A stretch of DNA of 64,000 nucleotides from an uncultured virus (IMG/VR IMGVR_UViG_3300031992_001727) (IMGVR_UViG_3300031992_001727), one strand, 5' to 3'. Shown: positions 1,829 through 62,323, counted from the stretch's first letter. Numbers and translations: made by a program. The notes: generated by a model not told the origin, from the sequence alone.

Positions 1829-1936
1829 TTGACATGGCCGTGGCAGGAGCCACGGCATAGTTAGACCGCTAGAGAGATTGTGCCGGCGGCGTAACCGCCG
1901 GCTACATAACATGAAATAACTAAACAACTATCAACA

Positions 1937-2446
1937 ATGGATTTCAATAGTCTGAACAAGGGTGATAACATCTATGTCATCAACAAGACCGACGCCGGGC
2001 CTGAAATGATTGTGTGTGAGGTCATGGACAAGACCGCTCCTCACTATGACTTACAGAACCAGGCTGCTGCCAACGGCAGCGGCATGCAGCAGGTTGTTGA
2101 CTTGAGTGTCCGGATTGGTGACCGTGTGGAGCCGATGCGCAACTTGACCGTCACTAAGCAGATGGAGAGTTACAACGGCGGCAAGCAGATAGTGTGTTGC
2201 GACAAGGAGAGCGTTCTGCGTGAGATAGACCGCATGATGTCGGTTAGCCGCGGTGAGATAGAGCGCGATGCCTATAACCACCAAGTGCTTGAAAAGGGCG
2301 AGGTCATCATTGAGAGCCTTAACCCGAAGTACAAGGAGGACAAGGAGCAGAAAGCCGCGATAGCCATGCTGAAAGACCAGATGTCGACGATGATGGGCAT
2401 GATGCAAGAGCTTCAGGAGAGTTTGAAATCTGCAAAAAAATCTTGA
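1937..2446 (+). CDS. Hypothetical protein, C-terminal coiled coil
   Basis: 169-aa ORF with A-rich leader. Confidence 0.7.
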   Translation: MDFNSLNKGDNIYVINKTDAGPEMIVCEVMDKTAPHYDLQNQAAANGSGMQQVVDLSVRIGDRVEPMRNLTVTKQMESYNGGKQIVCCDKESVLREIDRMMSVSRGEIERDAYNHQVLEKGEVIIESLNPKYKEDKEQKAAIAMLKDQMSTMMGMMQELQESLKSAKKS

Positions 2447-2450
2447 GGAA

Positions 2451-2696: not shown

Positions 2697-2779
2697 CCCA
2701 AATGTGTAGATAGGGCCACAGCGGGAGCTGTGGCACAGATAGACCGCTGTGGCCCATTCTGCTAAAAGACGAGCGAATT

Positions 2780-4103: not shown

Positions 4104-4145
4104 TGTGCGAGCCAGTGGCTCGCAATACCTAACAGTTGATTGACG

Positions 4146-4925
4146 ATGAAGACATTGAAAAAAGGGATGACCCGTGACGAGGTTAAGACCTTGCAGCGTG
4201 CGCTGGGGGTGAACGATGATGGCATCTTCGGGGTGATGACCGAGGTGGCTGTGAAGGACTTCCAGCGGTCGAGGCAGCTGATGGCTGACGGCATCGTGGG
4301 GGCGAAGACATGGGCCGCGCTTGGCGTGACGGAGAACAAATGCGTTGACCCGAGCGTGGTGTACCTGCCGCTGAGCGTGCATGTGAGCCGACTGCCTGGG
4401 CGCAGCATCAAGTACCTTGCCATACACTACACTGCTGGCAGCTCGTCGGACGCTGGCCGTGCGAGGGCGGTGAAGCATGTGTTTGAGACGCGGAAGGCTA
4501 GCGCAGACTTTGCCGTGGACGACAAGGAGATTGTGCAGTTCAACCCAGACATTCGCAACTACTACTGCTGGGCAGTGGGCGACAAGAAGGCGGCTGGATC
4601 AATCGCTGACGCCACCAACCGAAACACGATTAGCATCGAGATTTGCTCGACACTAGCAAAAGGCACCAGCGCAAGCGTTCCTAACCATGAGGGGTGGAGC
4701 TTCACCGATGAGGCTGTGACGAATGCCGTGCGGCTGGCTAGGCTGCTGATGCGGAAGTATGGGATTCCGATTGATCGCGTGGTGCGGCACTATGACATCA
4801 GCGGGAAGATGTGCCCGGGCATCATCGGCTGGAACACTGGCTTCATCTACACCACCGACGGGCGCAGAACCAGCAAGCGCAGTGACAGCGAGGCATGGGA
4901 GAAGTTCAAGGCTAGGCTGGCATGA
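4146..4925 (+). CDS. Endolysin: PG-binding domain + N-acetylmuramoyl-L-alanine amidase (Amidase_2)
   Basis: DGIFG/DGIVGAKTW PG-binding motifs; IHYTA, SIEIC, VRHYD..GKMCPG. Confidence 0.9.
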   Translation: MKTLKKGMTRDEVKTLQRALGVNDDGIFGVMTEVAVKDFQRSRQLMADGIVGAKTWAALGVTENKCVDPSVVYLPLSVHVSRLPGRSIKYLAIHYTAGSSSDAGRARAVKHVFETRKASADFAVDDKEIVQFNPDIRNYYCWAVGDKKAAGSIADATNRNTISIEICSTLAKGTSASVPNHEGWSFTDEAVTNAVRLARLLMRKYGIPIDRVVRHYDISGKMCPGIIGWNTGFIYTTDGRRTSKRSDSEAWEKFKARLA

Positions 4926-4965
4926 TGGTAATGGCCGCCACGGGAGTGGCGGCAAAGTGAGACCG

Positions 4966-5394: not shown

Positions 5395-5486
5395 TCCACA
5401 CGACTTTTTATGGTGCGAGCCGGGTGGCTCGCAATACGGAACAATAATGATTAATGATTGATGATTAATAAAAAAACTGACTGGAA

Positions 5487-5933
5487 ATGGCAAAAGAGAT
5501 TGAACAAGTGAATGACGAGCAGCAGAAGCAGCTGAATGCCGTGATTGAGGACTCGGTGGACTATGTGACCGTCCGTGGCAAGAAAAAGGGCGTGCGGTGG
5601 CTGAAAAACGCAACTATCAGGAAGGTGACTGACGTGCTGCTGGGGGAGCATGGGCATGAGAGCATGGTGAACTGCAAGTGCGCCGCAGCGATTGTGCTGA
5701 ACGGCTACTGGGGCATCAAGCTGTGGTGGTGGGCATTGTGGCGTTGGTACTACTATGTGAAGCAGTATCGCGACTCTGAGCTGACCGAGCTGATTGAGGT
5801 GGGCAAAAAAAAAGTGGATGTGGAAAGCTACTACTTGACTACCACATATCTGACCGCGATGAAGGACACGATGATGGCGATGACAAGAACGGAAGTCGAG
5901 CATTTCCTAGCCGCACAGCGTGGGGCGCAATGA
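5487..5933 (+). CDS. Probable tail assembly chaperone
   Basis: 148-aa ORF with GKKKV encoded over an A9 tract; assignment by inference. Confidence 0.4.
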   Translation: MAKEIEQVNDEQQKQLNAVIEDSVDYVTVRGKKKGVRWLKNATIRKVTDVLLGEHGHESMVNCKCAAAIVLNGYWGIKLWWWALWRWYYYVKQYRDSELTELIEVGKKKVDVESYYLTTTYLTAMKDTMMAMTRTEVEHFLAAQRGAQ

Positions 5934-6196
5934 GCGCAATCGGGGAGAAGCATGGTTGGCTGCTGGCCGACAAGCACTACCTTGGTGGGCTGGTGACGGT
6001 GAAGGCTTGGGGCTGGTGGACCGGCTACACGGCCGCACAGATAGAACTGATGGTTGCCGACAGCCCGCTGGTGACGTATGGTGACGGGAAGAAGAAGGTG
6101 AAGCGCGGCGACGTGGAGAAGGCGCATCGTGACTGGATGAGCCTAGACGAGCGTGAGACGCGGAATGTGAAGCTGAGTGAACTGCTGAAAGGTTGA
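5930..6196 (+). CDS. Hypothetical protein (possible second tail chaperone segment)
   Basis: ATGA overlap with previous ORF; TAAQIELM motif. Confidence 0.55.
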   Translation: MSAIGEKHGWLLADKHYLGGLVTVKAWGWWTGYTAAQIELMVADSPLVTYGDGKKKVKRGDVEKAHRDWMSLDERETRNVKLSELLKG

Positions 6197-6243
6197 TGGC
6201 CGTGACTGGAGTCACGGCATAGTGTGACCGATTTTTTTTGATT

Positions 6244-6723
6244 ATGGCAAAGAAGAAAGATGATGACAAGAGGGGCCTGATGACCCGGCTGATGAGCAAG
6301 TATCAAGTGCCTGAGCGGGAGTTCATGCTTGCTGTGCTTGTTGCTTGGGGTGTTCCGGCTGGTGACGCATTCGGTGCGCTGATGGACTGCAAGCCCGAAT
6401 GGCGCGAACAGATGTGGCAGCGTTACAAGAACGACAAGAGCAACCTGGGGACGCTGGAGCTGATCAGGGAACTGCGTGAAGGTTCGGCTGACAGTTCGGA
6501 CTCGTTTGCGTATGACTTGAAGAGCAAGGATGGCATGATAGAGGCCTTGTCGCGTCAAGTGCGTGACACCGACGACCCGAAGCAGAAGGCCGACATCTTG
6601 ATGAAGATAGCCGACTTGCAGCGCATGAAGCAGGACGAGAACACGGAGAAAGAGAAGCTGGTGCACTACTACCTGCCGTTGCGTTGCGAGGTTTGCCCCT
6701 GGAAAGATGGCGGGAACACTTAA
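6244..6723 (+). CDS. Hypothetical protein, possibly terminase small subunit
   Basis: Helical protein ending HYYLPLRCEVCP (CxxC); function inferred. Confidence 0.4.
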   Translation: MAKKKDDDKRGLMTRLMSKYQVPEREFMLAVLVAWGVPAGDAFGALMDCKPEWREQMWQRYKNDKSNLGTLELIRELREGSADSSDSFAYDLKSKDGMIEALSRQVRDTDDPKQKADILMKIADLQRMKQDENTEKEKLVHYYLPLRCEVCPWKDGGNT

Positions 6724-6776
6724 TGGCCGACGCGCTGCGCCGGCCCACGAATAACCGCTATTCGTTGCCACCGGGG

Positions 6777-7214
6777 CTAGGTGTCGCGCTGTGGTGAGCG
6801 GTATGCCGCCAGTGCCTTGAGCAGTGCCGAGACGTCGAGTTCGGCATTGAATAAGATGGAATAGGCCAGCTGTAGCTGGTGTATGTAGTGCAGTTGGAAG
6901 ATTGGTCTTCCGGCTGCACTGATTGTGTATAGCCCCTGCTGTGTGGAGTGGTTAAGTGTGAACTCTGTTTGGTTGATTGTCCATGAACTTTGTTGGCTTT
7001 CGAGGTCGGGCAGTGTACGGATGAGGTTGTCGGTGATAGGCACCGGGTCGACTTCGGCCAGCCCCAGTGTTGCGACATAGATGAGCCGATTGTCATCTAG
7101 AATTGCCGGCCTCATGGTGCATATAAACCTCTTGTTGTGAACATTTTGCTTGTCAAGCGGGACATAGTCGGCGATGAAGACCACCGAGCCGAATGTGAGC
7201 TGGTCGAGTCGCAT
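6777..7214 (-). CDS. Hypothetical protein (YopX-like, YIHQLQ motif)
   Basis: ORF from MRLDQLTFG; PVPIT...LHYIHQLQ resembles 13825-14229. Confidence 0.5.
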   Translation of the reverse strand: MRLDQLTFGSVVFIADYVPLDKQNVHNKRFICTMRPAILDDNRLIYVATLGLAEVDPVPITDNLIRTLPDLESQQSSWTINQTEFTLNHSTQQGLYTISAAGRPIFQLHYIHQLQLAYSILFNAELDVSALLKALAAYRSPQRDT

Positions 7215-7986: not shown

Positions 7987-8424
7987 TTATAGGTGTATTA
8001 CTTTTTCGTCGTTGATGACTTGTGTGATGATTGATCGGAACTGGTCGTTGTTGTGTATGAGTGCGATGCATAGGGATGTGAACGACACCCGGAAATCTGT
8101 GTCGTTGTTCTCAAATGCGTACTTCAAACTTGTTTCCAGCCCTTTACCGCCGATGGCTGAAACCATATCTGCTTCTGTTGTAATTCCGATTAGCATCATT
8201 GCTGAGAACATCTGTTTCAGTTCGTCAAACTTCTCCCTGACTTGTCGCTGGGATGGTGTCTCTTTGAATAGTTCTCTTAACTCATCGGTTCTCGCTTCAA
8301 TCGTTATTGTATCATTCAATTTGTTTGGTGGCGATGTGAGTTTGTCGGCCTCTGTTCCGAGGTCTACTTTCCCGGCATAGACTACTGGTTTGTCGCCGAT
8401 GAAGATTTCTTCTTTGTCTTTCAT
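7987..8424 (-). CDS. Hypothetical protein
   Basis: ORF from MKDKEE, ATGA overlap with radical SAM stop. Confidence 0.55.
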   Translation of the reverse strand: MKDKEEIFIGDKPVVYAGKVDLGTEADKLTSPPNKLNDTITIEARTDELRELFKETPSQRQVREKFDELKQMFSAMMLIGITTEADMVSAIGGKGLETSLKYAFENNDTDFRVSFTSLCIALIHNNDQFRSIITQVINDEKVIHL

Positions 8425-9362
8425 TTTTTGTTGAGATATTGTGCGCATGTGAAGCCTTTGCGTGGGCGGAAGTCACGGAATGCGCAGGTGATGTATAGTG
8501 CTTTCTGGTTGGCCCAGTGCGCCATGTCACGTTGCCATTGCGGAATGTTCTGGACGAGCGACGTGAGGTCGAGCATGGGCTGTGCCTGGCAGCGCACCTT
8601 GCGGTCGTAGCGTGGGTGCCTCCAGTGCTCTAGGCGGCTCAGGCACTCGTCGAAGTCGCCGTGTAGCATGGTATAGAGCATCACTCGGCCATTGTAGCCA
8701 TGCTGGCGCAGAAGCGTGATTGCTCGGTCGCAGTCCTCGACTTGTGCTGCTGTGTCGCAGCCGAAGCGGATGTACTCGATCCAGCGCACGCGTGCCAGCA
8801 GTGCGGCCATGTCGTCGGTGACTAGGCGTGCGTCCATTGCCTGGTTGAAGTCTACCCGCCATCGGTGATTGACGATTTTCTCGATTTGCTGCAAGCCGTA
8901 GTCGCTGGCGAGGATGTTGTTGTCCATGAGGAAGAGGTTTGTTCGCCCGTCGATTGCGATTTGCTCTACGTCCATGTATGGACGGATTTTGCCCTCGGCC
9001 TTCGGGACCACGCACCATGGGCAACGCCGGATGCAGCCTCGCGTGAGAAAGCCGATGGCCCAATTAGGCTTCCAGTTGATGGCAAGCGAATAATCAGGTT
9101 GGCATCGGTCAATCTCGTCGGGCAGGTTGTGGTAAGGTGCTCCCCAGCCCGTGCCGCCGCGAACCACCTTGTCGGCGTTGATGGGGTACTGGTACTGCGG
9201 TATGAATGTGAACACCTTGCTGTGGTAGCAGATGTCGTAGTGCTTGAATGGCGAGTAATATTCAACAGAATCGCCCTGTCGTTTGTGCCATGTGGCGCAT
9301 TTGAGCAGGGCGAGGTTGGGGAAGTTGCGGTGGCAGTCGTCGGGTAGTATGGCGATGTTCAT
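8421..9362 (-). CDS. Radical SAM (Fe-S oxidoreductase) protein
   Basis: TRGCIRRCPWCVV (CxxxCxxC), FPNLALLK, DNN, DFNQAMDARL. Confidence 0.85.
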   Translation of the reverse strand: MNIAILPDDCHRNFPNLALLKCATWHKRQGDSVEYYSPFKHYDICYHSKVFTFIPQYQYPINADKVVRGGTGWGAPYHNLPDEIDRCQPDYSLAINWKPNWAIGFLTRGCIRRCPWCVVPKAEGKIRPYMDVEQIAIDGRTNLFLMDNNILASDYGLQQIEKIVNHRWRVDFNQAMDARLVTDDMAALLARVRWIEYIRFGCDTAAQVEDCDRAITLLRQHGYNGRVMLYTMLHGDFDECLSRLEHWRHPRYDRKVRCQAQPMLDLTSLVQNIPQWQRDMAHWANQKALYITCAFRDFRPRKGFTCAQYLNKK

Positions 9363-9631
9363 AGAATGTTTCGGATTTCGATGCCGTGTTGTTTGAGGAT
9401 GTCTCGCCATCGCAGTATGACTTCTGCCCGGTCTTCCTCGTCCTCGCACTGCGATAGTTCGTTGGCGAATCGGACGAGCATCTTTGCCTTGTCAAGTGTC
9501 TCGTCGGCTTGGTCATCGTAATCTTCGGCCTCGGAGAGCATAGCCTTTGACTGCTGGCGCATGGCATAGAATAGCCCGATGTTCACTCCGCAGCAGAGGA
9601 TGTTGAAAATTGAAAGGATGAGTGTTGTCAT
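9359..9631 (-). CDS. Hypothetical membrane-anchored protein
   Basis: N-terminal hydrophobic helix, 90 aa. Confidence 0.55.
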   Translation of the reverse strand: MTTLILSIFNILCCGVNIGLFYAMRQQSKAMLSEAEDYDDQADETLDKAKMLVRFANELSQCEDEEDRAEVILRWRDILKQHGIEIRNIL

Positions 9632-9888: not shown

Positions 9889-9949
9889 GATTTTGTTGGT
9901 TTTGTGCCGGCGGGGTCGCCGGCAATACTTAACTTGTTGTCGTTGTCGC

Positions 9950-10483
9950 TCACAATAATCTCTTCCCTTTCTCGGTTGCCATGTGGCGGTCGATGATGGC
10001 CATCACCTGGGGGATGACAGCCTCGACAATCTCCTCGGCGATGTCGGCGTAGTACATCGACACGCGCTGGTCGCCGTGTTCTCCGTCGCCATCCACCATC
10101 TGCACGCAACGGTTCCACGCATCAGCCTGGTTGCGGAACATCTGGGCCAGCTCGTTGCCGCCCTGGTTGTCGATGCCCTCTGTCAAGTTGTCGAACACCT
10201 CGGCCATGCGGTCGGCGATGCTTGTTGCTATGTCGCCAGCGGCAAAGCACAGCAGCATGTGCCGCACCAGCTGCTTGCGGGCCTCATAAATCTCGGCCTT
10301 GATGCTGTCGATGGTCTTGTTCTGCTCACGCATCAGCCGCTCAATTCGGTCGGCCTCGCGGTCAAGACCGCTGTCACGCAGCACATCACGCTGCACCTTC
10401 ATGCGGTTGAGCTCGGCATAGGCAGCAGTCAGCCGATGAAGGGGTTTGAAATAAAATTTGCGGTTTGGTTTCTTCATAGTCAT
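9950..10483 (-). CDS. Hypothetical helical protein
   Basis: 177-aa ORF, overlaps dUTPase stop. Confidence 0.6.
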   Translation of the reverse strand: MTMKKPNRKFYFKPLHRLTAAYAELNRMKVQRDVLRDSGLDREADRIERLMREQNKTIDSIKAEIYEARKQLVRHMLLCFAAGDIATSIADRMAEVFDNLTEGIDNQGGNELAQMFRNQADAWNRCVQMVDGDGEHGDQRVSMYYADIAEEIVEAVIPQVMAIIDRHMATEKGKRLL

Positions 10484-10896
10484 TGTCCTGTTGATCCGTA
10501 GCCGCCGTTGCCGCGCTCGGTGTCGCTCAGCGTGTCGGCTTCGATGGGTTGCACATTCAGAAATGGAACGATGACCAGCTGGGCGAAGCGGTCACCGACA
10601 TAGTATCGCTTTCCGTTGGGCTTGTTGTCGAACTTGGCCGACACCTCGCCGCGGTAGCCGCTGTCAATCACGCCCACACAGTTGGTCAGGCGCATGTCGG
10701 TGCTGCTCACGCTGGAGCGCGGGAACAGCAGCCCCACATAGCCATCGGGTATCTCCATGGCGATGTCGCTGTGACACACCCACAGCTCGCCTTCGTAGCC
10801 GCACCGGCTCACATACATGTCAAGCCCAGCGTCACCTGTGTGCGCCCTTGTCGGCAGCTGAGCGGTGGGCGCGAGTTTTCTTACTTTGATTTTCAT
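10480..10896 (-). CDS. dut: Trimeric dUTPase
   Basis: Motifs AGLD, PRSS, GVIDSGYRGE, GDRFAQL, RGNGGYGSTG. Confidence 0.95.
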   Translation of the reverse strand: MKIKVRKLAPTAQLPTRAHTGDAGLDMYVSRCGYEGELWVCHSDIAMEIPDGYVGLLFPRSSVSSTDMRLTNCVGVIDSGYRGEVSAKFDNKPNGKRYYVGDRFAQLVIVPFLNVQPIEADTLSDTERGNGGYGSTGQ

Positions 10897-15071: not shown

Positions 15072-15144
15072 AATGATTTGGTTTTTTGGTTTGGTTAAAA
15101 AATATTGCCTCTGTCTCGCTATGCCGTGGCTCCTGCCACGGCCA

Positions 15145-19458: not shown

Positions 19459-19483
19459 TTTACTCTTTTGGATGATGGATTTA

Positions 19484-43818: not shown

Positions 43819-43890
43819 TATTGTCGCCGCCACAGGAGTGGCGGCATAGCTGTACCGTTATTTTGTTTTTCTTTTTTTGGTTATAGTGTT

Positions 43891-44421
43891 ATGGATAAGG
43901 GAGATTTTTTGAAGTCAGAGGCTATTGGCCTTGGCTTGTGTGAGAAATGGCGCGAAGCGTGGTCTTCGGGCCTTGGTGATGATGCTTTGGTGGAGAAGTT
44001 CAAGGATGGCATTGACTTCTGCATCTTGCATGACTGGCCGTCTTGCGCTTGGGTGAAGGAGCATTTTGACGCAGAGTTGCTGGCTCGGCATGGTGTGTTT
44101 GTAGACGCGGACTTGCGAGCGGGGTCGCTCGCAATACCTGACCTTAACAGCTATGTTCTGATGGGTGATTGCCGTGGTGTGTTGCGTTTTGGCGGCTTTG
44201 ATGTTGCCACGGTGTATGTCCGTCACCAGTGCGATGTTGAGATAATGGTTGATGGCCTTGCGTATGTTGATGTGAGGGTCTATGATGGTGCCCATGTGAT
44301 TGTTTTGGGTGACAGCGCGCGTTCTGTGAACGTGTATGTCTACGATCATGGCAGCTGTGACATGCGTGGCAATGTGAGTGTCCGTCATCGTGGTTCCTTT
44401 AAAGACTTGGCTGATGAATGA
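43891..44421 (+). CDS. Conserved hypothetical phage protein (beta-repeat C-terminus)
   Basis: A..LGLC..W...W...GIDFC...P. Confidence 0.65.
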   Translation: MDKGDFLKSEAIGLGLCEKWREAWSSGLGDDALVEKFKDGIDFCILHDWPSCAWVKEHFDAELLARHGVFVDADLRAGSLAIPDLNSYVLMGDCRGVLRFGGFDVATVYVRHQCDVEIMVDGLAYVDVRVYDGAHVIVLGDSARSVNVYVYDHGSCDMRGNVSVRHRGSFKDLADE

Positions 44422-45235: not shown

Positions 45236-45298
45236 GCGGTGATGGAATGAAAAAGCCGCGGCGGGAGCCGCGGCACAGACAGACCTTTGTTGTTTCTT

Positions 45299-47788: not shown

Positions 47789-47854
47789 TTTCTTCTTGTT
47801 GTTGCCAGCCGCCACTGGAGTGGCGGCATAGTGTATTGTTGTCGCGTTGAGTTG

Positions 47855-49324: not shown

Positions 49325-49399
49325 TGTTTTTTGTTTTTGTTGTTCTGTGCGGGCCGGGTGGCCCGCAATACTGAACGTGTTGTTACTTATTGTTTCTTT

Positions 49400-51126: not shown

Positions 51127-51190
51127 TGCAAATGTAATAATTTTTTTTAGAAAAAGTTGCATTGTTATAAAATTTTGTATTAACTTTGCG
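51127..51190. promoter_or_regulatory. Divergent late promoters
   Basis: TACATTTG on - (about 51130-51137) and TAACTTTG on + (51181). Confidence 0.6.
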
Positions 51191-51245
51191 GTTGGATTTA
51201 ATCATTGAATCAATTTCAGTTTCTCTCATTTATGGTTTTTGGTTT

Positions 51246-51587: not shown

Positions 51588-51620
51588 CGCGGCAAGCATA
51601 ACTTGCCGCCACACGACACG

Positions 51621-52528: not shown

Positions 52529-52570
52529 TGGCAGCGATTTAATCGCTGCATACTGAATAACGATAGAGTG

Positions 52571-53203
52571 ATGGATAAAGAAAAAATCTTTAGTGAGTTA
52601 AAAACGAGGATTGGAGAGACCAGTCTGAGTGACCGTACGCTGATGACTTGGGTTGAGAAGAACTTGCCCGCAGAAGGTGTTGAGCCTGATGATGCGTACT
52701 GGGAGAAAGGTGTGTCGCTGTTGCAGAGCCTGGGTGGCCAGTACAGCCATGATGTAGCGGCTTTTGTCGCCAAGCATGGTGGCAAGCAAGACCCCGACCC
52801 TTATCCTGACCCCGACCCGAATCAAGGTGATGGAAACAAAGGCAACGACGACGCATTGAAGATGCTTAGCGACTTGGCCAAGCGTTATGATGAGTTGAAG
52901 GCGCGCATGGACGCTGATGCCGCTGACCGCGACAAGGCGAAATTGCTCGGTCTCGTCAAGGGCGAGATGGAGCGTCGCGGTTGCGACAACGCTTATGTTC
53001 TTGAGCATGTTCTGAACGAAGCCGACCTTGATGGCAAGAAGCCGTTGGAGACGCTTGTTGATGAACAGCTTGTGCGTTACGACTCGGAGTATGCCAGGGC
53101 ATTTGGCAGCGGTGTTCAGCCCCGTGGCTCGATGGGCGGCGGTGGCGGCAAGAGCGCGGCAGATGCCTACTTCGCCAAGAAGTGGAAGCAGGGTGCTGAG
53201 TGA
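52571..53203 (+). CDS. Capsid scaffolding protein
   Basis: LSDRT, PDPDP linker, coiled coil; precedes capsid genes. Confidence 0.6.
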   Translation: MDKEKIFSELKTRIGETSLSDRTLMTWVEKNLPAEGVEPDDAYWEKGVSLLQSLGGQYSHDVAAFVAKHGGKQDPDPYPDPDPNQGDGNKGNDDALKMLSDLAKRYDELKARMDADAADRDKAKLLGLVKGEMERRGCDNAYVLEHVLNEADLDGKKPLETLVDEQLVRYDSEYARAFGSGVQPRGSMGGGGGKSAADAYFAKKWKQGAE

Positions 53204-53291
53204 CTGATGGCCATCACAGGAGTGATGGCATAGCTGGACCGCACTTGGATAGATTTTAGTTTTTGTGTTATTTTAATTTTCAGTTTCAGTT

Positions 53292-53705
53292 ATGAGTATT
53301 GGAAATACATTTCAGAATGGCAGCGTAGCTGTCCCTGGCAAGGCCCGCAAGGTTTGGCGTGAGATTCGTCACCAGTGGCCCGCCGGCGGCAAGGTTGTCA
53401 ACGTGAGCGCATGGTATGGCGGCATCATTCCTGCCGGCACTCCTTGCAAATATGACGGAGCGACAAAAGAGGTGACTTGCTACACCGACGATGCAATCAC
53501 TGCCGCGTCGAGCATTGCCACCCTTGGCATCAACGGCTACACTCAAGAGGACATTGACTGCCGTGCCATCAACGCCAGCGCGCCTGGCATTGCCACCGCC
53601 ACCGTGATTTATGACGGCGAGATTTACGACTTCATGTTTGACAGCGCAGTGCTTGCCAAGCTTAAGACCGTGACCACTTGCCCTCAAGTGATTTTTGTGC
53701 ATTAA
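53292..53705 (+). CDS. Head decoration/auxiliary capsid protein
   Basis: IPAGTP motif, immediately upstream of MCP. Confidence 0.65.
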   Translation: MSIGNTFQNGSVAVPGKARKVWREIRHQWPAGGKVVNVSAWYGGIIPAGTPCKYDGATKEVTCYTDDAITAASSIATLGINGYTQEDIDCRAINASAPGIATATVIYDGEIYDFMFDSAVLAKLKTVTTCPQVIFVH

Positions 53706-53733
53706 TGTTTAACCACTAACGAAAGATAAAGAA

Positions 53734-54936
53734 ATGAATCGACTTCCTGGAACATTGTATGATTTTCTGACGCTTGGCCTTGGTGGTGAGACTTTCCAGA
53801 GTTTCGTTGACCACTACAACGAGCGTTATGACCGTGCGGAGATTGATGGCTTCACGTTTGCTCCTGTGCAGCTGGGCTACACTTGGCAGCAGCTGATCAG
53901 CCAGGTTGCGACCACCGTGTTGCCTACCTATGTTGACCCCGAGTCTCCCGGTTATGAGATGCCATTGAGCGAGATTGCCGGTGCCACTGGCAACATTCCT
54001 ACCTTCAAGAACCGCTATCGTCTGAACCGCGTTACGGTTCGTGAGAAGTTGCAGCTTGCTCAGAAGCTTGGCAGTCTGAATGGCCTGACCGCTGACATTC
54101 GTGACACGTTCATGCAGCTGCTTGACGAGGGTGTTGAGAGCCACATCAAGAGCTACTACAACGCACTGACGAACCAGCGCATGCAGGTTGTCTCGACCGG
54201 CAAGTTCACAATTGACCTGAACAACCCCCGCGGCTACCGTGGTGTGACGCTTGAGTTTGGTGTCCCCGCCACTCACTTTGACTCGCTGACCGGTACCGCC
54301 CGATGGTGGACTAATGCCGACCACTCGATCGAGGGCAATACTAGCGACCCCATCACGTATCTTAAGGACAAGGTCAAGGCCATTCGCCGCACGTATCACT
54401 ACGTCGGTCGCTTGAAGATGGAGATTAGCCGTGACCTGCTTGAGGATATGCTTGGCCACAGCAAGGTTCTGTTGACCCTTGGCCAGCGTCTGTATCCGAT
54501 CAGTGCTGTTGACACCGCCGCTGGCAATGCCGCCGCTGTCAACTATGCTAAGAACAGCAGCGAGGATGCCTTGCTTGCTGAGCTGCGCAAGGTGATTGGT
54601 GTAGACTCGATTGTTGCCCGCGACAGCTGGGCATACGTGAGCGCGCCCGGCACGAACGCTGCTGGTGATCCCGACCTTGTGGCTACCCCGATTCAGAACT
54701 TCGACTCGCACAATGTGGCGTTCTTGCCTGAGGGCAACATCGGCCAGTTCATGGGCGTTGAGCCTCTGACCCTGGGTTATGACCCCGACAAGGTGGCATC
54801 GTACAACGGTGGCCGTCTGAAACTGCAAGAGCGTGCCGAGCCTGACACCCACTCGATTTACATTGACTCGGAGGCTGCACAGCTTGCTGTGCCTAGCCAG
54901 CCGCATAATATGTTTATCTGCACGGTGACGGCTTAG
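53734..54936 (+). CDS. Major capsid protein (lambda gpE-like)
   Basis: 400 aa; Q.VSTG...NNP.G, WW...SDPI..L, C-terminal LAVP..P. Confidence 0.8.
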   Translation: MNRLPGTLYDFLTLGLGGETFQSFVDHYNERYDRAEIDGFTFAPVQLGYTWQQLISQVATTVLPTYVDPESPGYEMPLSEIAGATGNIPTFKNRYRLNRVTVREKLQLAQKLGSLNGLTADIRDTFMQLLDEGVESHIKSYYNALTNQRMQVVSTGKFTIDLNNPRGYRGVTLEFGVPATHFDSLTGTARWWTNADHSIEGNTSDPITYLKDKVKAIRRTYHYVGRLKMEISRDLLEDMLGHSKVLLTLGQRLYPISAVDTAAGNAAAVNYAKNSSEDALLAELRKVIGVDSIVARDSWAYVSAPGTNAAGDPDLVATPIQNFDSHNVAFLPEGNIGQFMGVEPLTLGYDPDKVASYNGGRLKLQERAEPDTHSIYIDSEAAQLAVPSQPHNMFICTVTA

Positions 54937-55046
54937 TGAGTGTTACTTGCCGTCACTGGAGTGGTGGCTGAGCTATTACTTGCCGTCACAGGAGTGACGG
55001 CATAGCGAGACCGATGGTATTTTAATTGACAATAAAGGTTAGAGTT

Positions 55047-55436
55047 ATGGCAGCGAAGTGTGGTATTACGATAGAGGAGCATCTGCGTGGTCTTGTGGAG
55101 AAGTTTGACTTGTCGGACACGACCATCAGTTCGATCTTGATAGATGCAGGCATTAGTGAGGGCATGCCCGTGAGCGAGTTGAGCCGCGAGCAGCTAGACC
55201 TTGCTGTGGCGCATCTGTACTTGTGGTGCTTGCACTTCTTGCCTTACTCGAAGAACAACACCAAGGATGCCGATGGCGGCTGGGAGCACACCGAGGGTGG
55301 CTATCAGCTGCTGGCGGCAGACCGCGAGCGATGGTGGGCTTACTTGCGCTGGTTGTGGCGCAGGTGGCGTTGGCCTTGGCTTGAGGAGTTGCTTGACGAG
55401 GAGAAGTCGAGCAAGGTGGTTGTGTTCAACCTTTAG
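55047..55436 (+). CDS. Head-tail connector/adaptor
   Basis: DLA.A.LY.W...DADGGW.HTEGG; follows MCP. Confidence 0.6.
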   Translation: MAAKCGITIEEHLRGLVEKFDLSDTTISSILIDAGISEGMPVSELSREQLDLAVAHLYLWCLHFLPYSKNNTKDADGGWEHTEGGYQLLAADRERWWAYLRWLWRRWRWPWLEELLDEEKSSKVVVFNL

Positions 55437-55495
55437 TGCGAGCCAGTGGCTTGCAATACTGAACGAGTGTTTAAAATTTTTAGAATTTAGAAACT

Positions 55496-56122
55496 ATGGC
55501 TGACCCAACTGGACAAAACCCTGGTGTTATTGATGGGGGTGAGCAACAAATCAATGAAAATATGGCAGCAGTAACTGTAACAAAGGATGTGAGTGCGCTT
55601 CGTACTCTGTTCAACAAGGTAGGTCGTATCTATTTCACTAGCACGACCGACAAGACTCCGGCAAATCTTGCTACGCTTGATTTCCGTTTGCCGATTCTGG
55701 AGGACTCGGTGGAGTTTGACACTGGTGAACCCGACATTGAGACCGTGAACTTGACCACTGGCGAGAAGTGGACCACTATGACCACCGCTGGCGATCCTAA
55801 CATCACGATGCAGTGCGCGTCGTTTGCCACTGAGATTACCGACCTGTTCTTGAACGTGACCGCGGCCTCTAGCGGCAACATGACTCTTGACGGCAGGACT
55901 TATGCCGGCAAGGGCTATGACCTGAGCGCGAAGAAGGTGACTGGTGGTCTGTTGCTGATGGGCGAAGACCTTGAGATGGCGATTTTCATGCCTCACGTTG
56001 AGATTTACTCCAGCATCGGCATTGAGCAGAATGTACCCGGTTACTTCACGATGAATGTAACCCCGCTTGCCAGCTCTGCTGACAACACGGCAATTTACTT
56101 CTTGCCCAAGACCAGTGCTTAG
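55496..56122 (+). CDS. Major tail tube protein
   Basis: LP.LEDSV.FDTGEP...W....GD..I; precedes tape measure. Confidence 0.7.
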   Translation: MADPTGQNPGVIDGGEQQINENMAAVTVTKDVSALRTLFNKVGRIYFTSTTDKTPANLATLDFRLPILEDSVEFDTGEPDIETVNLTTGEKWTTMTTAGDPNITMQCASFATEITDLFLNVTAASSGNMTLDGRTYAGKGYDLSAKKVTGGLLLMGEDLEMAIFMPHVEIYSSIGIEQNVPGYFTMNVTPLASSADNTAIYFLPKTSA

Positions 56123-56290
56123 TGGCATGCTGGCCGTGGCCGGAGCCACGGCATAGCAATACCGAGACAGTGTGGCGGTGGGGGATGCGGTGAGCTGAAC
56201 TCGCCGCCACACAACTTTTGTTTCCCCTTTTTTACGAGCCGGGTGGCTCGCAATACTGGACAATTATTTGTTTGTTAGTTATAGATTGTT

Positions 56291-59200
56291 ATGGCAGAAG
56301 GTGGTGGCCCTAGTTTGGGTAATTTTTACTTTGATGTTATATTTCGGGACAAGAGCCAAGGGTTTCTTGAGCATGTTAAGAACACGCTCAAGAGCATTGA
56401 CCGCAGTATCACGATAAATATCAGCAGCACCGGTGTTAATGGTGATGTAAGCAAGATTCAGCAGGCAATCAATCAGAAGCTTGCGAATGTGAAGGCTGTT
56501 GTACCCGTGTTGTTGAACAACCAGGCTGCGGTTCAGATTGGCGACTTGCTGACCAAGCTGAAAGGGATGACGGTTGAGCTGAACGTGCTGTTGAAGAACC
56601 CGACGAAGAAGAACCTGGAGTCGATTCAGCGCGCTGTTCGCTCGATGGTTGTTCAGATTGATGTCAAGCTGAAAGAGATAGACCAAGCCAAGATAGACGC
56701 ATTGAAGAAGCGCACCGAGGGCAAGCTGAAACTGGAGGCGACGGTCAACATGAACACCGCGCGCAACAGCCTGAGTCAAGCATTGAAATCGCGTCCCTTC
56801 AAGTTTGATGTTGTCGTTGACCAAATGAAGGTAGCCAGGGCCGTGCAAGCGGCATTGACGCAAGCTGGCTATAGCGGTGCCGGCATGACTGCCGCCCAAG
56901 CCCGCGCTCAGAGAGCGATGCAGCAGCAACAGGAAAGCATTGCAAGGATTGCCCGTCAGAATGCTGAGACGCAAGCAAAGATTGCCCGTCAAGATGCCGC
57001 ACAGCAAGCCAAGACCGCTCAACAAGCTGGCATCGCCGCTCAACGCCAAGCTACCGCCGCTCAGCAGACAGCAGCCGCCCATGCTCGCGCCCAAGCCGCC
57101 ATAGCCCGCTCGACCGCCGCCATCAACCGCAACACGCAGGCCAACCGCCAGAATGCAGCATCGTTCATGCTTGTGCGTCGCAGCATGCTTGAGAGCATTC
57201 CGCTGGCTGGTAGCCTAGCGAACATGGCTAGGAACTATGTGGGTGTGTTCGGTGCTGTGAGTGCTGTGCGGTCGTTGTATCGTATCAGGGCGGAGTTTGA
57301 GCGCCAGGAGGTGGCGTTGCGTGCATTGATGCAGAGTGCCAGCCAAGCGCGTGAGGTGATGGGGCAGTTGCAGCAGATGGCGTTGAAGTCGCCGTTCTCG
57401 GTGAGCGACATTGTGAGTTTCTCTAAGCAGTTGTCGGCATTCTCGATTGGGAACAATGAGCTGGTGGAGACAACGAAACGGCTTGCTGACTTGTCGGCTG
57501 GTCTGGGTGTTGACATGAGCCGACTGATTCTCGCCTACGGGCAGGTGAAGGCCGCGACGGTGCTGCGTGGTCAGGAGCTGAGGCAGTTCACCGAGGCCGG
57601 TGTTCCTATGGTGCAGGCCCTTGCCGACCAGTTCACGAAACTGGAGGGGCGTGTTGTGACCGCCGCCGATGTGTTTGACCGCATATCGAAGAAGGCCGTC
57701 AGCTTTGAGATGGTGAAGCAGGTGCTTGACTCGATGACGAGCGAGGGTGGGCGTTTCTATGACCACCAGGCTAAGATGGTCGAGACCTTGTATGGCAAGA
57801 TGGAGCGATTGGGCGATGCGTATAAGGTGATGATGAACCAGCTGGGCAGTAGCCATGATGCTTTGCTGAAAGCCCCGATAGATGCTATCACCAAGGCCAT
57901 GATGGACTGGCGCAGCACCGTTCGTGCTATTGTTACGATGCTTGCCTCCAGCGGTATTTGGAAGTTTGTGAACTACTTGAAGACTCCGCCACAGGCGTTT
58001 GCCGGCCTTCAAGGCATGAAAGAAGCCGCCTTGATGCAGAAGCGCATGACAGCGATGACTGCGATGTATGAGCGTGGTGGTCTGGACAAGCTGAATCGTG
58101 GCATGCAAAGTTACATCATGCTGAGCAACACAATGACCAAGACCGACTGGAAGAACGTGGTGATGAAGAACAATCTTAGCAAGGCCGAGACGATGTATCT
58201 TTACACCACAGGTCGTTTGACCAAGGCTCATGTTGAATGGATAGCCAGCCAGCGCAAGTGGAACCTTGCCGCTCAGCAAAGCATCTTGAACATGAGCAAG
58301 ATGCAACTGCTTGGTATGCGTGCCGGCATTGCCATCACTCGTCTTGCTGCATCGGTTCGCGCCTTTGCTGCCCAGGCCTTGCCTGTTGCGATTATCTCGC
58401 TGTTTGTAGACATTATTGGCAAGGTGATTCAGGCCAAGCAGGAGATTGATGACTTCAACAAGCAGGTGCGTGAGAGTGCGAAAGAGACGGTTGACGACTT
58501 GCGCAGTTACCTTGACAGCCACCGCGATGCGTTTGACTTGGTAGTCAACCCAGAAATATCTCAGGACAGCGACACGTTGCAAAAGACCTGGGAGGACTTG
58601 AAGCAGAAGATAGCGACCTTGCCCGGTCAGGAATTGATATTGGGCATTGTGTCGGATGGTGCTGATGGTGACTTGAAGAAGTTGAACGCGAATGCGATAG
58701 AGTTCTTGCGTACGATGGAGCGTGTGAGTGATGAGATCAAGAACATGAACACGCAGATGGAGTACACGCAAGATGACTGGTTGTATGGCTTGTTTGATGA
58801 AGGCGTGAAGAGCGATGTGAAGGACTACAATGACAAGCTGAAGGAAACGCGCAAGGAGATAACTGCCATCAATGACTACTTGCGTCACAACAAGGTCAAC
58901 TTTGAGCTGACTATTGGTGGGCTTGATTCGTCTAGCATCAATGATATGCGTGAGGCAATCGCTAGTGCTGGCGCAAATGAGGCATGGGTTGGTGAGGCCG
59001 CTACGCGTGCCGCATCGCAGCTGAAAGAAGCCTACGATGAAATGTCTGACGAGATAAATGCCAGTCTGAGGACATCGCTGCTGCCCGTGTTTGAGGAGTT
59101 GCGTCAGAAAGGCATCACGTCGCCGAAAGAGATGGCCGCTGCATATCAGCAGATCATGCCTCAGATACGCGAGGCGATGGGTGCGACAACGAAAGAGGCT

Positions 59201-62200
59201 CAAGACACACTTGACCGACTGGCTATGGCCATGCTGCGCTCAAATGGTTTCACCCTTGACGAGGTTGTGTTGCTTGGTGAACGTGCCGCTAGCGACCTGC
59301 GCACCAGCATCACGCGCGAGGCAGAGAAGATGGGTGTTGACATCAATGACATCATAGAGTCGAACAACACAGACACGATGAAGGCCTTGCTTGATGCTGC
59401 CATCGCCAACAACAGAACCATCAGTGATGACACGCGTGCGCAGTTTAATGCTCTGCGCGACTACATCATGACGCACCCAGCGACGTTCCGTGTTATCATG
59501 CGTGTTGAGACCCAGGAAGATGGTGAGGCGCGGAAGTATCTCAAAGGTCTGAATGGTGCTAAGAATGCCTATCAGCTTGCTCAGACCTATGGCTCAAGCA
59601 CTCCCGAGGGCGGTGACACGAACGAGAAGGCCATCAAACGTGCAAAAGACAACTATGCGAATGCATTAGAAAAGCAACAAAACCTTGGTCGGCAGCTGAA
59701 GAACCTAGAGAAACAAGGCCAGAAGAACAGCCAGCTATATAAAGACACCAAGAAAGCCTTCGACAACGAGAAAACAAATGCAGACCAGGCGAAAAAAGCG
59801 TATGATGACCTTGGCGGTGACCCGGCAGACTTTCAGCCTAAAGGCAAGAAAGGCGGCAAGACCGGGCACAAGACTGGTGGCAAGGGGACGAAGCGTGATG
59901 AGTGGTTGGATGTGATGCGTAACCGCTTTGCTGAGTACAAGGAGGCGCGGGCCGAGGTTGAGAAGCTGCGCAAGATGGGCATGAGCGAGGCCAAGGCTAT
60001 TGAGGAAGTGATGAAGATGCCTTGGGACTATGACCTGAACAAGGATTACCTTGGCCGTGGTGATGCGAAGGCCCTGGTAGACTATCTGATTCCGCTGGTT
60101 GAGCAGCATGGCAAGGGCCTGCAAGGCTCGTTCAAGCAGGCTAACAACAAGTTCTTGATGGAGTTGCGCAAGGCTCAGCATGATGACCAGCTGAAACAAT
60201 ATGAGGAAGAGACCAAGAAGATAGGCGATGCCATCAAGAAGCACATTGAGACAGGTGTGCGGCAGTGGAAGTTGTATGACGCGCTGTTTGCGGCGACTGG
60301 GGATGAGGCTTTGAGCGCGAATGCGGCTTTTGGGGGAAAGAAGCTGTTTCGGAACATCGAGGAGCAGCTGATTGCTCTGTTCAACAAGAACGAGGGGAAG
60401 GTGGACTTCTCGGACGCGTTGCAGATGGATGAGAAGACGCTGAGCGAGAAGCTACTGAAAAATGCTGACGAGTATATCGACCTGCTGAAACGCATCAAGG
60501 AGATGCGTGATAGCGGCTGGAGCGACATCATGACAAAGGCAGCCGAGGCGATGGAAGCGCAGATGACGCTTGAGGAGAAGTTGCAGAAGCAGCGCATGGT
60601 GAACCAGAAGGAGCTTGCCGACTTTGTGAAGCGCAACGGTGGCATGGAGAAGGTAATGTCGAACCCCGAACTGTTGAAGCTGTACAATGCGCTGAAGAAT
60701 GCCGGGCTTCGCGCACTTGCCGAGCTGGAGCAGGAAGGTGTGAAGCTGAGCGCGTTTTGGAAGGGCTTGTTTGACAAGTTGAGCGAGAGCACGCTTGGCG
60801 GTCTGCGCCGTGTGGTGACCAAGTATGGCACCGCGTTGAAGAATGCCAAGCGCAACGGCGACGGCACATGGACTGTGCCAGGCATTGACCAGCCGGTGAC
60901 CGAGGGCACCTATCGTGAGATGGTGAAGCGCATAGAGGACTTGCGCGAGAAGATTCGCGAGTTGAGTCTGACTGACTATCTGAGCGACCTGTTCGGCAAC
61001 GATGGCCTGTGGCGCAGGGCCGAGACGCTGGGCGAGAAGATGGAGATTATCGCCATTGCCGTGGGGCGTGTGCATGATGAGCTGAAAAAGGCCACTGGCC
61101 CGATGAAGGAGTTTTTCTCGGCCCTTGGCAATGACACGGTAGGCGACTATGTTGACTTCTTCGACGAGATGCTGAACGGCATCACCGAGCTTGGCACTGG
61201 AGCGGCGAGGATGGCTAGCGGCGACCTGCTGGGTGGCGGCATTCAGGCTGTGGGCGGTTTGTTCTCGACGATAACGAGTTTCTTCAACTTCCACGACAAG
61301 CGGTTGGAGAAGCTGATTGAGGAGAGCAAGCGAACGGTGTCGAAGTTGGAGAATGCTTACTCGCAGATGGAGAAGGCCCTGGAGCGCAGCCTTGGCGGCA
61401 TGTACACGACCCGCAGCTACCAGCAGCAGCTGAACAACCTGATGCAGCAGCGCAAGGAGGTGCAGCGGCAGATGGATGCCGAGCGTGACAAGAAGAAGAC
61501 CGACAAGGATGCGCTGATAGCATACCAGCAGCAGCTTGCTGAGATGGATGACCAGATCAAGCACTTTGCCGAGGACATGGCTAACTCGCTGTATGGCATC
61601 GACATCAAGAACTGGGCCAAGCAGCTGACTGACGCAGTGGTGAACGCCTGGCGCAACGGCGAGAATGCCGTTGAGGCCTACCGTGACAAGGTGAAGGACA
61701 TCATTGCCGAGGTTGCGACGAGCATCATCAGCCAGAAGATTATGGAAGCCGCGTTGCAGCCCGTGCTTGACACGCTGGTGGCAGAGATGACTGCCAAAAA
61801 CGGATTGCTGGACGAGGGGACCATCATGACCTTTGCGACGATGCTGGGCAATGCCGGCAACACGGCAGTGAACACGATAACTGGTGTGCTTGACGCACTG
61901 AAAGCGCAGGGTTATGACTTGACCAGCGGCAACGGGGCAGGCACACTGGGGCAGGGCATCAAGGAGATCACCGAGGACCAGGCGAACTTGCTTGCCAGCT
62001 ACATCAACGCAATGCGCGCTGACTTGAGCGTTGTGCGGATGCTGTGGGAGCAGCACGCGCTGGGATTGAGCGTTGTGAGCCAGGCGCAGCTGACTGAGCT
62101 TGCCGCCATCAGTGCGAACACGTTGCGCAATGCCGAGGCTGCTGAGCGCATTGAGGCCGCGCTTGGGTCGGTGATCACAGTTGGTGCCAGCGGCGCGAGG

Positions 62201-62212
62201 GTGCGTGTGTGA
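56291..62212 (+). CDS. Tape measure protein
   Basis: 1973 aa helical; ALKSPF, DMSRLILAYGQV, LRGQELRQFTEAG. Confidence 0.92.
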   Translation: MAEGGGPSLGNFYFDVIFRDKSQGFLEHVKNTLKSIDRSITINISSTGVNGDVSKIQQAINQKLANVKAVVPVLLNNQAAVQIGDLLTKLKGMTVELNVLLKNPTKKNLESIQRAVRSMVVQIDVKLKEIDQAKIDALKKRTEGKLKLEATVNMNTARNSLSQALKSRPFKFDVVVDQMKVARAVQAALTQAGYSGAGMTAAQARAQRAMQQQQESIARIARQNAETQAKIARQDAAQQAKTAQQAGIAAQRQATAAQQTAAAHARAQAAIARSTAAINRNTQANRQNAASFMLVRRSMLESIPLAGSLANMARNYVGVFGAVSAVRSLYRIRAEFERQEVALRALMQSASQAREVMGQLQQMALKSPFSVSDIVSFSKQLSAFSIGNNELVETTKRLADLSAGLGVDMSRLILAYGQVKAATVLRGQELRQFTEAGVPMVQALADQFTKLEGRVVTAADVFDRISKKAVSFEMVKQVLDSMTSEGGRFYDHQAKMVETLYGKMERLGDAYKVMMNQLGSSHDALLKAPIDAITKAMMDWRSTVRAIVTMLASSGIWKFVNYLKTPPQAFAGLQGMKEAALMQKRMTAMTAMYERGGLDKLNRGMQSYIMLSNTMTKTDWKNVVMKNNLSKAETMYLYTTGRLTKAHVEWIASQRKWNLAAQQSILNMSKMQLLGMRAGIAITRLAASVRAFAAQALPVAIISLFVDIIGKVIQAKQEIDDFNKQVRESAKETVDDLRSYLDSHRDAFDLVVNPEISQDSDTLQKTWEDLKQKIATLPGQELILGIVSDGADGDLKKLNANAIEFLRTMERVSDEIKNMNTQMEYTQDDWLYGLFDEGVKSDVKDYNDKLKETRKEITAINDYLRHNKVNFELTIGGLDSSSINDMREAIASAGANEAWVGEAATRAASQLKEAYDEMSDEINASLRTSLLPVFEELRQKGITSPKEMAAAYQQIMPQIREAMGATTKEAQDTLDRLAMAMLRSNGFTLDEVVLLGERAASDLRTSITREAEKMGVDINDIIESNNTDTMKALLDAAIANNRTISDDTRAQFNALRDYIMTHPATFRVIMRVETQEDGEARKYLKGLNGAKNAYQLAQTYGSSTPEGGDTNEKAIKRAKDNYANALEKQQNLGRQLKNLEKQGQKNSQLYKDTKKAFDNEKTNADQAKKAYDDLGGDPADFQPKGKKGGKTGHKTGGKGTKRDEWLDVMRNRFAEYKEARAEVEKLRKMGMSEAKAIEEVMKMPWDYDLNKDYLGRGDAKALVDYLIPLVEQHGKGLQGSFKQANNKFLMELRKAQHDDQLKQYEEETKKIGDAIKKHIETGVRQWKLYDALFAATGDEALSANAAFGGKKLFRNIEEQLIALFNKNEGKVDFSDALQMDEKTLSEKLLKNADEYIDLLKRIKEMRDSGWSDIMTKAAEAMEAQMTLEEKLQKQRMVNQKELADFVKRNGGMEKVMSNPELLKLYNALKNAGLRALAELEQEGVKLSAFWKGLFDKLSESTLGGLRRVVTKYGTALKNAKRNGDGTWTVPGIDQPVTEGTYREMVKRIEDLREKIRELSLTDYLSDLFGNDGLWRRAETLGEKMEIIAIAVGRVHDELKKATGPMKEFFSALGNDTVGDYVDFFDEMLNGITELGTGAARMASGDLLGGGIQAVGGLFSTITSFFNFHDKRLEKLIEESKRTVSKLENAYSQMEKALERSLGGMYTTRSYQQQLNNLMQQRKEVQRQMDAERDKKKTDKDALIAYQQQLAEMDDQIKHFAEDMANSLYGIDIKNWAKQLTDAVVNAWRNGENAVEAYRDKVKDIIAEVATSIISQKIMEAALQPVLDTLVAEMTAKNGLLDEGTIMTFATMLGNAGNTAVNTITGVLDALKAQGYDLTSGNGAGTLGQGIKEITEDQANLLASYINAMRADLSVVRMLWEQHALGLSVVSQAQLTELAAISANTLRNAEAAERIEAALGSVITVGASGARVRV

Positions 62213-62323
62213 TGGTGATGGTTATGGCCGTGACAGGAGTCACGGCACAGCGAGACTGATTGTGCGGGCGGGGTCGCCCGCAATACTGAACTGATGGTGT
62301 AACTTTGATTAATAATTAATGAT

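Follow-up and report, generated by a model that had tools for sequence, protein, structure and literature searches.

Why should a phage carry the same small hairpin many times over, mostly in the gaps between its genes, and what might read it? The question is raised by a 64,000-nucleotide (nt) stretch of DNA from an uncultured virus (IMG/VR IMGVR_UViG_3300031992_001727), here called the window, which holds 14 copies (13 on the plus strand, one on the minus strand) of an 8-bp GC hairpin with loop NGGA and 3' tail AYAG-N3-GACCG that we refer to as family A. The window is a temperate siphovirus-like phage whose host is probably one of the rumen Bacteroidales. An earlier note on this DNA had described the hairpins and taken them for a phage-wide recognition signal, comparing them with repetitive extragenic palindromic (REP) elements, the substrates of RAYT/HUH enzymes. 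The answer that we favour, and think probable, is that family A consists of REP-type hairpins, read as single-stranded DNA (ssDNA), on which a bacterial RAYT-like enzyme acts in trans, and that the 3' ends of mRNAs are likely to be affected as a side effect.

The hairpin and an enzyme gene beside it

The 32-nt consensus of family A is GCC RYSR C / NGGA / G YSRY GGC / A[ACT]AG N3 GACCG, that is, a constant G-C-C foot, four varying stem positions (R-Y-S-R), the loop and the tail, often with G or TG directly before the stem. The tail tetranucleotide, A[CTA]AG, abuts the foot of the hairpin, and its A29 and G30 are invariant in the 26 copies aligned. When the window was searched for GCCNNNNCNGGAGNNNNGGC with at most one mismatch, 16 matches were found where 1.15 were expected and where the largest count in a shuffled sequence was three; the 14 exact matches are the copies reported by the earlier note, and the seven stem variants listed there all occur among them. 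The two one-mismatch matches, at 6309 and 57565, were excluded from the family because their arms are unpaired and the tail is missing. A covariance model built from 26 copies (the 14 of the window and 12 from other loci) and run with filters off recovers exactly the same 14 copies in the window, at 20-54.7 bits (E <= 6e-4), the next match reaching 13.7 bits, so that the earlier count of 14 dispersed elements with compensatory stems, fixed loop and tail is borne out by pattern and model alike.

Pairing is likewise perfect in 13 of the 14, as had been claimed, the exception being the copy at 54949 with one G.T. Over the 26 copies, 208 of 208 stem cells are paired, and four of the eight pairs vary on both sides (34 cells); none of 500 shuffles was as high, and slid controls were paired at 20-59%. 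The pattern by which copies were collected imposed nothing on the four variable stem positions, and metagenome loci were retained only with at least 7/8 pairs. Folded as ssDNA, eight copies of eight give the expected hairpin with an unpaired tail, seven of them at -9.1 to -11.6 kcal/mol and the degenerate 54949 at only -3.6. At E <= 1 the hairpins match no Rfam family, CRISPR direct-repeat families included. The idea that the element is a mini-ORF (an open reading frame, ORF, running ATG GCC ... GCA TAG, 'MAVAGATA*') was dropped, the ATG being present in only about half of the phage copies and in none of the bacterial ones.

The evidence that points to an enzyme comes from bacterial DNA. Among metagenome contigs the full 32-nt pattern was found at 26 loci, 14 of which have at least 7/8 stem pairs, two of these being the phage itself; the remaining loci, with 4-6 pairs, are chance matches in high-GC DNA. 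On one contig, L027, four family A copies (47.6-52.8 bits with the covariance model) form two plus/minus inverted pairs, 5798(+)/5918(-) and 6947(+)/7162(-), which flank an ORF at 5928-6917 (-). The 329-aa product carries the motifs PDHLHIV, LWEEGF and YVHDNP in translation, and the comparison with RAYT/HUH substrates has thus gained a locus at which a Y1-HUH gene stands between copies with this hairpin, loop and tail. NCBIfam scoring gives this protein 41 bits as a RAYT vs 14 bits as an IS200 transposase; by sequence it has no match in the PDB. Homologues, 31-49% identical, are encoded in seven of 401 Bacteroidales genomes, and H-x-H, the Tyr and N-x-x-R are invariant across 11 of them.

An AlphaFold model of the L027 protein, made from the homologue alignment (pLDDT 85.9), finds ISDra2, IS608 and IS200 TnpA in Foldseek at E ~1e-6, the best E-values being among these, and its core superposes on the E. 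coli RAYT bound to a REP hairpin (4er8_A; E 1.7e-6, root-mean-square deviation 2.3 A over 137 columns), while its C-terminal half matches DprA. Three homologues (G327:C12, G220:C3 and G091:C7) lie between two copies of a hairpin of their own, GCGACG-N4-CGTCGC, which are about 1.1 kb apart and are the only ones in those genomes. Taken with the fold, these flanking hairpins indicate a family of hairpin-associated Y1-HUH enzymes, and on L027 the flanks are family A. As modelled, the L027 protein is a divergent relative of RAYT and TnpA-Y1 with an added DprA-like domain. The same build recurs in the Bacteroidales RAYT-like proteins more widely (L027 and L043-L054): some 330-370 aa, a Y1-HUH core and a C-terminal domain modelled as DprA, an ssDNA-binding recombination mediator. 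No name for a RAYT-plus-DprA-like build was found in those parts of the literature that were available.

Elsewhere in bacteria, family A copies lie singly in intergenic DNA of Bacteroidales chromosomal type, in the following contexts:

L042: GH92 and FAD oxidoreductases
L037: two copies; ApbE, an outer-membrane barrel and a cleaved-adhesin protein
L040: Wzz and a flippase
L041: MutS2
L026: a response regulator, GyrA and a TonB-dependent receptor

Against 401 Bacteroidales genomes, GyrA of L026 reached 69-71% identity at best, and DNA of L042 65-68% over about 1 kb. No real family A copies were present in the families of the nearest genomes, that of G195 with 6 genomes and that of G360 with 12; over the roughly 419 Bacteroidales genomes of these overlapping sets (401+6+12) there was at most one pattern match each, the host clade not having been reached. 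In run X5, where the phage is also found, contig ends resemble the flanks of L027 when compared by eye, so that one sample seems to have yielded both the phage and a related HUH locus. Another locus, L022 (333-6101), has one family A and one B-like copy (see below for family B) and encodes a reverse transcriptase (RVT_1), an endonuclease/exonuclease/phosphatase protein and an ART-PolyVal polyvalent protein; from this gene content it is another mobile element or phage with these hairpins.

Copies in the phage genome

The family A copies of the window, placed against our own crude gene calls based on codon usage, are these:

1837..1868, plus strand: GCCGTGGC AGGA GCCACGGC, tail ATAGTTAGACCG; 8 nt past the stop of 959-1828; 52.9 bits; -11.6 kcal/mol as ssDNA
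2715..2746, plus strand: stem GCCACAGC, tail ACAGATAGACCG; 18 nt past the stop of 2451-2696
4934..4965, plus strand: stem GCCGCCAC, tail AAAGTGAGACCG; 8 nt past the stop of the amidase gene 4140-4925
6199..6230, plus strand: stem GCCGTGAC; 2 nt past the stop of 5930-6196
15111..15142 (pattern match 15123), minus strand: the sole copy on this strand, almost the same as copy 1837; 2 nt past the stop of the minus-strand 15145-15597
43826..43857, plus strand: behind the D5-type primase gene
45255..45286, plus strand: in a convergent gap; the only copy with a T-run after it, on the minus strand
47808..47839, plus strand: between minus-strand portal and 838-aa genes, antisense to both; degenerate tail (ATT); 33.8 bits
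51012..51042, plus strand: antisense to the terminase large-subunit ORF 49400-51229 (-) at its 5' end, in the leader or in frame (AVAPATA)
53210..53241, plus strand: stem GCCATCAC; 6 nt past the stop of 52568-53203
54949..54980, plus strand: degenerate, one G.T, tail TGAGCTATTACT; 12 nt past the capsid gene stop; 20 bits
54982..55013, plus strand: in tandem with 54949, behind the major capsid gene 53734-54936; 54.7 bits
56133..56164, plus strand: ahead of the tape-measure gene
62227..62258, plus strand: 14 nt past the stop of the tape-measure gene, followed by a family B copy

Twelve of these are clearly intergenic; 47808 runs into an ORF only at its first codons, which are doubtful, and 51012 is either within the start of the terminase ORF or ahead of it. 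Eleven of the 14 begin 2-19 nt past the stop of a co-oriented gene, which agrees with the earlier statement that copies usually lie a few bases after a stop codon, and a twelfth (54982) stands in tandem behind 54949; the exceptions to the rule of a co-oriented gene in front are 47808 and 51012, both in plus orientation. Thirteen fall at 42-64 kb or 1-6.3 kb, which make up the late and structural part, one at 15.1 kb and none at 15,150-43,800.

In the stretch 50960-51229 (minus strand) of the terminase large-subunit ORF there is no in-frame ATG, GTG or TTG between copy 51012 and the region conserved in relatives; the candidate starts are GTG 51109, GTG 51082 and ATG 51229 or 51205, so that the hairpin may be translated in frame (AVAPATA), the alternative being an unusual start. 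Near 51125, on the minus strand, there is a Bacteroidetes-type -7 box (TAcaTTTG).

A second hairpin, family B, has a TGC-stem, a loop of GGGT or 3 nt and the tail ATACYGAAC. Its 11 strict copies, all on the plus strand (11+/0-), often come in tandem pairs or immediately follow a family A copy:

4106..4133, plus strand: TGCGAGCC AGT GGCTCGCA ATACCTAAC
5414..5442, plus strand: loop GGGT, tail ATACGGAAC
9905..9933, plus strand: between two minus-strand genes
44114..44142, plus strand: within the called ORF 43891-44421
49348..49376, plus strand: between minus-strand terminase and portal genes
55437..55464, plus strand: 7/8 pairs; immediately past the stop of 55026-55436
62263..62291, plus strand: behind family A copy 62227
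62815..62842, plus strand: first of a tandem pair
62848..62876, plus strand: second of that pair
63162..63190, plus strand: first of a tandem pair
63196..63223, plus strand: second of that pair

Variants resembling family B, with other loops or tails, occur at 3588, 52531 and 1882. Searched with the family B pattern, viral contigs returned strains of the same phage and nothing else, and five genomes with RAYT-like homologues returned none.

Families A and B together have 24 of 25 elements on one DNA strand. Five elements are informative in this respect, as they lie in or beside minus-strand gene blocks, and four of them are on the plus strand (47808, 51012, 9905 and 49348) and one on the minus strand (15123).

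The elements also differ between closely related strains. Strain L004 differs from the window at 429 of 14,875 columns (about 97% identical), and at the site of copy 43826 it has a compensatory stem change, C..G to T..A, plus the tail of copy 4934; the tail of 47808 reads ACC (intact) in L004 vs ATT in the window. The 33-nt unit at 54949 is missing from L004 and from a DNA contig of run X5, and an X12 contig has a single copy with a tail different again. In the comparison with L004 no gene is gained or lost at the copies, the changes lying inside the element only.

DNA passengers or RNA signals

In the mechanism proposed here, family A would be a DNA hairpin with an asymmetric tag, read on ssDNA by a Y1-HUH enzyme of the RAYT/IS200 kind, and the phage copies would be non-autonomous passengers, copied or converted in trans by a host enzyme while the phage DNA is single-stranded, either when the prophage is passed by the host replication fork or in the course of rolling-circle replication. 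Copying at such a stage would explain why 24 of 25 elements lie on one strand regardless of the direction of neighbouring genes, and, if a compact phage genome tolerates insertions only between genes, the copies would be expected just behind stops. The tight spacing in the phage is indeed better explained by the compact genome, because bacterial copies are not uniformly near stops: the L026 copy is 16 nt past one, whereas those of L042 and the second of L037 lie 200-270 nt past the nearest upstream ORF of at least 90 aa. Proximity to a stop codon as a target-site rule was rejected on account of these last two. Once in place, the stable hairpins would probably stabilise the 3' ends of late mRNAs or serve as weak attenuators in them, which is what E. 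coli REPs do, and such an effect on mRNA 3' ends is plausible.

As the earlier note had said, the window holds no HUH transposase, none having been found there in Pfam, PHROG and NCBIfam scans or in translation; in viral contigs, searched with the single protein and with an 11-sequence alignment as queries, no confirmed relative of the RAYT-like gene was found. That note's proposal of a phage-wide signal read by a phage-encoded factor is not supported, the element also occurring singly in bacterial chromosomal contexts. Nor does the partner suggested there look apt, the recombinase at 32711-33595 being a generic tyrosine recombinase (26.9 bits vs the integron-integrase cutoff of 265). The note had also considered that the hairpins might be abundant ordinary host REP elements without positional bias, and of this one half stands, namely that the element is found in bacterial DNA beside a RAYT-like gene; the other half does not, as the element is not abundant in any genome searched and has a strong position and strand bias in the phage.

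Several observations weigh against a REP-type element served by a bacterial enzyme. The link to the enzyme is made by a single contig, L027, with a G+C of 0.59 vs about 0.51 for the phage, and the protein encoded there falls below the curated cutoffs of both families that it matches, NCBIfam REP_Tyr_transpos (NF047646; E 1.5e-10, 41.1 bits, cutoff 80) and Pfam Y1_Tnp (PF01797; E 6e-4, 20.4 bits, cutoff 23). No copy-rich genome was found: of the 401 Bacteroidales genomes, three have a single pattern match and one of these a paired stem. In the homologues the hairpins occur twice per genome, which looks more like a solitary unit of IS200/IS605 type than a dispersed REP population. The tag also differs: described REPs have the tetranucleotide GTAG directly 5' of the hairpin foot, according to the parts of PMC8266576 that were available, whereas family A, on the strand read here, has AYAG 3' of the hairpin, which becomes CTRT 5' of it on the opposite strand, and an extra GACCG block. 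Inverted doublets are regarded as the mobile unit in the passages of PMC3116915 that bear on this, whereas the phage copies are singlets or direct tandems, nearly all on one strand. The clustering is not expected of random insertion, and the bias to the late part together with 11 of 14 copies at co-oriented stops fits an RNA-level role. Finally, one contig from an RNA library (X3 #12) stops at 56166, where DNA contigs continue, the tail of copy 56133 having ended 2 nt earlier; this is a weak hint, from one run.

These last points lead to the main rival, which we regard as doubtful though by no means negligible: that the phage keeps family A primarily as an RNA signal, which would punctuate the 3' ends of late mRNAs by blocking an exonuclease, serving as a processing site or acting as a factor-dependent attenuator, with loop and tail read by an RNA-binding protein of host or phage and the likeness to the RAYT flanks reflecting shared ancestry only. 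A constant loop and tail on varying stems would suit such a reader, as would the placement at stops in the late region, the double copy behind the major capsid gene and, weakly, the contig end at 56166. However, copies 47808 and 51012 and the family B copies at 9905 and 49348 lie antisense to the genes around them, and the RNA contig just mentioned continues through 54949, 54982 and 55437. Phages with a 50-54% identical capsid protein have no family A copies (0 in 10 loci), the Pfam, PHROG and NCBIfam scans of the window offered no candidate reader protein, there is no Rfam match, and the element is found in bacterial DNA and beside an HUH gene as well.

Ordinary intrinsic terminators, alike by chance or by duplication, are unlikely, and a good deal more so than an RNA signal of the phage. 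It is true that GC-rich 8-bp stems of -9 to -11.6 kcal/mol (as ssDNA) stand behind genes, and that 45255, on the minus strand, is followed by TTTTT, but that is the one hairpin of the eight in 42000-61999 that passes a scan for terminator-like structures, and it does so on the opposite strand only, so that the absence of U-tracts noted earlier is upheld; the total of 24 such structures in that interval is near the shuffle mean of 19.4. Where T-runs are present near family A copies they begin at least 12 nt past the stem, the RNA contig continues through three elements, and a conserved loop and 12-nt tail are not needed for termination.

Folded recombination sites of the attC kind, for a tyrosine recombinase of the phage, are more unlikely still. 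Integron attC sites are read as folded single strands and have long imperfect stems with extrahelical bases, and the phage does encode two tyrosine recombinases (28859-30013 and 32711-33595). These score 55.8 and 26.9 bits against the TIGR02249 integron-integrase model, far from its cutoff, and the 20-nt perfect hairpins of family A have neither the long imperfect stems nor the extrahelical bases; the genes between copies are core head, tail and lysis genes in their usual order, not cassettes, and the strains show no gene gain or loss at the copies. Least probable of all is that the elements are solitary mimics of CRISPR repeats (RNA anti-CRISPRs), in which a hairpin and 3' handle soak up host Cas6-type proteins: a hairpin with a short 3' tail recalls class 1 CRISPR repeats, in resemblance only, but no CRISPR direct-repeat or other Rfam family matched, 14 copies with varying stems across gene gaps are unlike the pattern of such mimics, and the element flanks an HUH gene, not cas genes.

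The phage, known systems and what follows

By family searches the phage has a terminase, an SPP1-type portal, a major capsid protein, a 1973-aa tape measure and an amidase endolysin for head, tail and lysis; DnaB, an O-like initiator, RecT/RecE, SSB and a D5-type primase for replication and recombination; and, for lysogeny, a repressor and the two tyrosine recombinases, one with a Bacteroidetes-type arm-binding domain. Among named genomes, the closest capsid relative comes from a Tannerellaceae contig (54% identity), and a megablast search of 42000-62300 against 50,697 phage records gave no match. Strains with 95-98% DNA identity occur in viral and metagenome contigs, and runs from nine studies, labelled as sheep, goat or bovine gut, contain the phage.

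Several other features of the window may be recorded. A C5 cytosine DNA methyltransferase ORF at 17599-19503 (-) is broken by Hint / PT-HINT matches (residues ~100-175), which suggests an intein. At 33905-33955 (-), just downstream of 33963-34751 in the lysogeny/early region, there is a near-threshold Rfam match to DUF2693-FD RNA (39 bits vs a gathering threshold of 44.5, E 2.4e-5). Positions 1-508 hold about seven 69-nt tandem repeats, 82-89% identical, in a 5'-open ORF (3-680), probably repeated domains of a tail or fibre protein. A tRNA-Trp (CCA) at 26405-26476 (-), about 2.4 kb upstream of the integrase gene, could be phage-borne or mark the attachment region, and the early block has a radical SAM domain protein (8421-9449, -; PHROG 9298, E 1.6e-89) next to a dUTPase-like gene (10480-10896).

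How, then, does family A stand to systems already described? With the REP/BIME and RAYT 'REPtrons' of E. coli, Stenotrophomonas and Marinomonas, and with Pseudomonas REPINs, it shares a short GC-rich extragenic hairpin, a tetranucleotide at the foot and many dispersed copies, and, at the L027 locus, a Y1-HUH gene between inverted copies; the DHLH, WE and Y-V-x-x-N-P motifs of the L027 protein resemble those listed for TnpAY1 class 2 (PMC6006769). It differs from REPs, beyond the points already raised, in a perfect 8-bp stem with no bulge and in having a phage genome as its densest known home, no genome with hundreds of copies having been found; the L027 enzyme differs from RAYTs in its length of about 330 aa and its DprA-like C-terminal domain. 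Stoperators, the dozens of short asymmetric sites that the temperate cluster A mycobacteriophages have near stop codons with a strong orientation bias, are another comparison, and the elements of the window are likewise many, asymmetric, orientation-biased and placed in small gaps near stops. Stoperators are 13-bp duplex sites of the phage repressor, oriented with transcription and with no hairpin, whereas the family A hairpin covaries and occurs outside phage, and families A and B together ignore gene direction in four of the five informative cases. With IS200/IS605 elements and their transposase-less derivatives the likeness lies in the Foldseek E-values, in homologues with one hairpin per side, and in a uniform strand orientation, such as replication-coupled insertion of ssDNA would produce (PMC6006769). 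Here the differences are that the L027 flanks are inverted doublets of one element, not distinct left and right ends, and that the phage copies are 32 nt without internal cargo.

It is tempting to go further and to propose, tentatively and as something possible rather than probable, that this temperate rumen phage is a hot spot for REP-type elements and perhaps a vehicle for them, with two families in almost every late-gene gap at some ten times the density of the bacterial contigs, a nearly one-strand fossil record of replication-coupled insertion by a host RAYT-DprA fusion, kept as punctuation of late-mRNA 3' ends. Such a phage would be a counter-example to the view of REP/RAYT systems as strictly vertical and avoiding mobile elements. 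For family A the comparison of densities is a rough one from small numbers, with 14 copies in 64,000 nt of window vs six in 67,220 nt of five bacterial loci, five of the six being the seeds of the search. In those parts of bioRxiv 10.1101/2021.07.10.451892 that were available, RAYTs are held to be absent from horizontally mobile elements and REPINs to be vertically inherited, and searches of the open-access literature aimed at REP-type or miniature hairpin elements in phage genomes yielded no description of them; a phage with two such families at this density is therefore unusual.

Even if the link to a bacterial RAYT-like enzyme should fail, family A would still be an undescribed conserved hairpin signal of a Bacteroidales phage. 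The highest observed density of family A is in this temperate phage of sheep, goat and cattle gut samples, and, if the link holds, the phage would offer a route for such elements between hosts. The 24 of 25 copies on one strand would provide a natural test of strand-specific insertion of ssDNA, and the layout of phage late operons, perhaps also their expression, would have been shaped by selfish hairpins.

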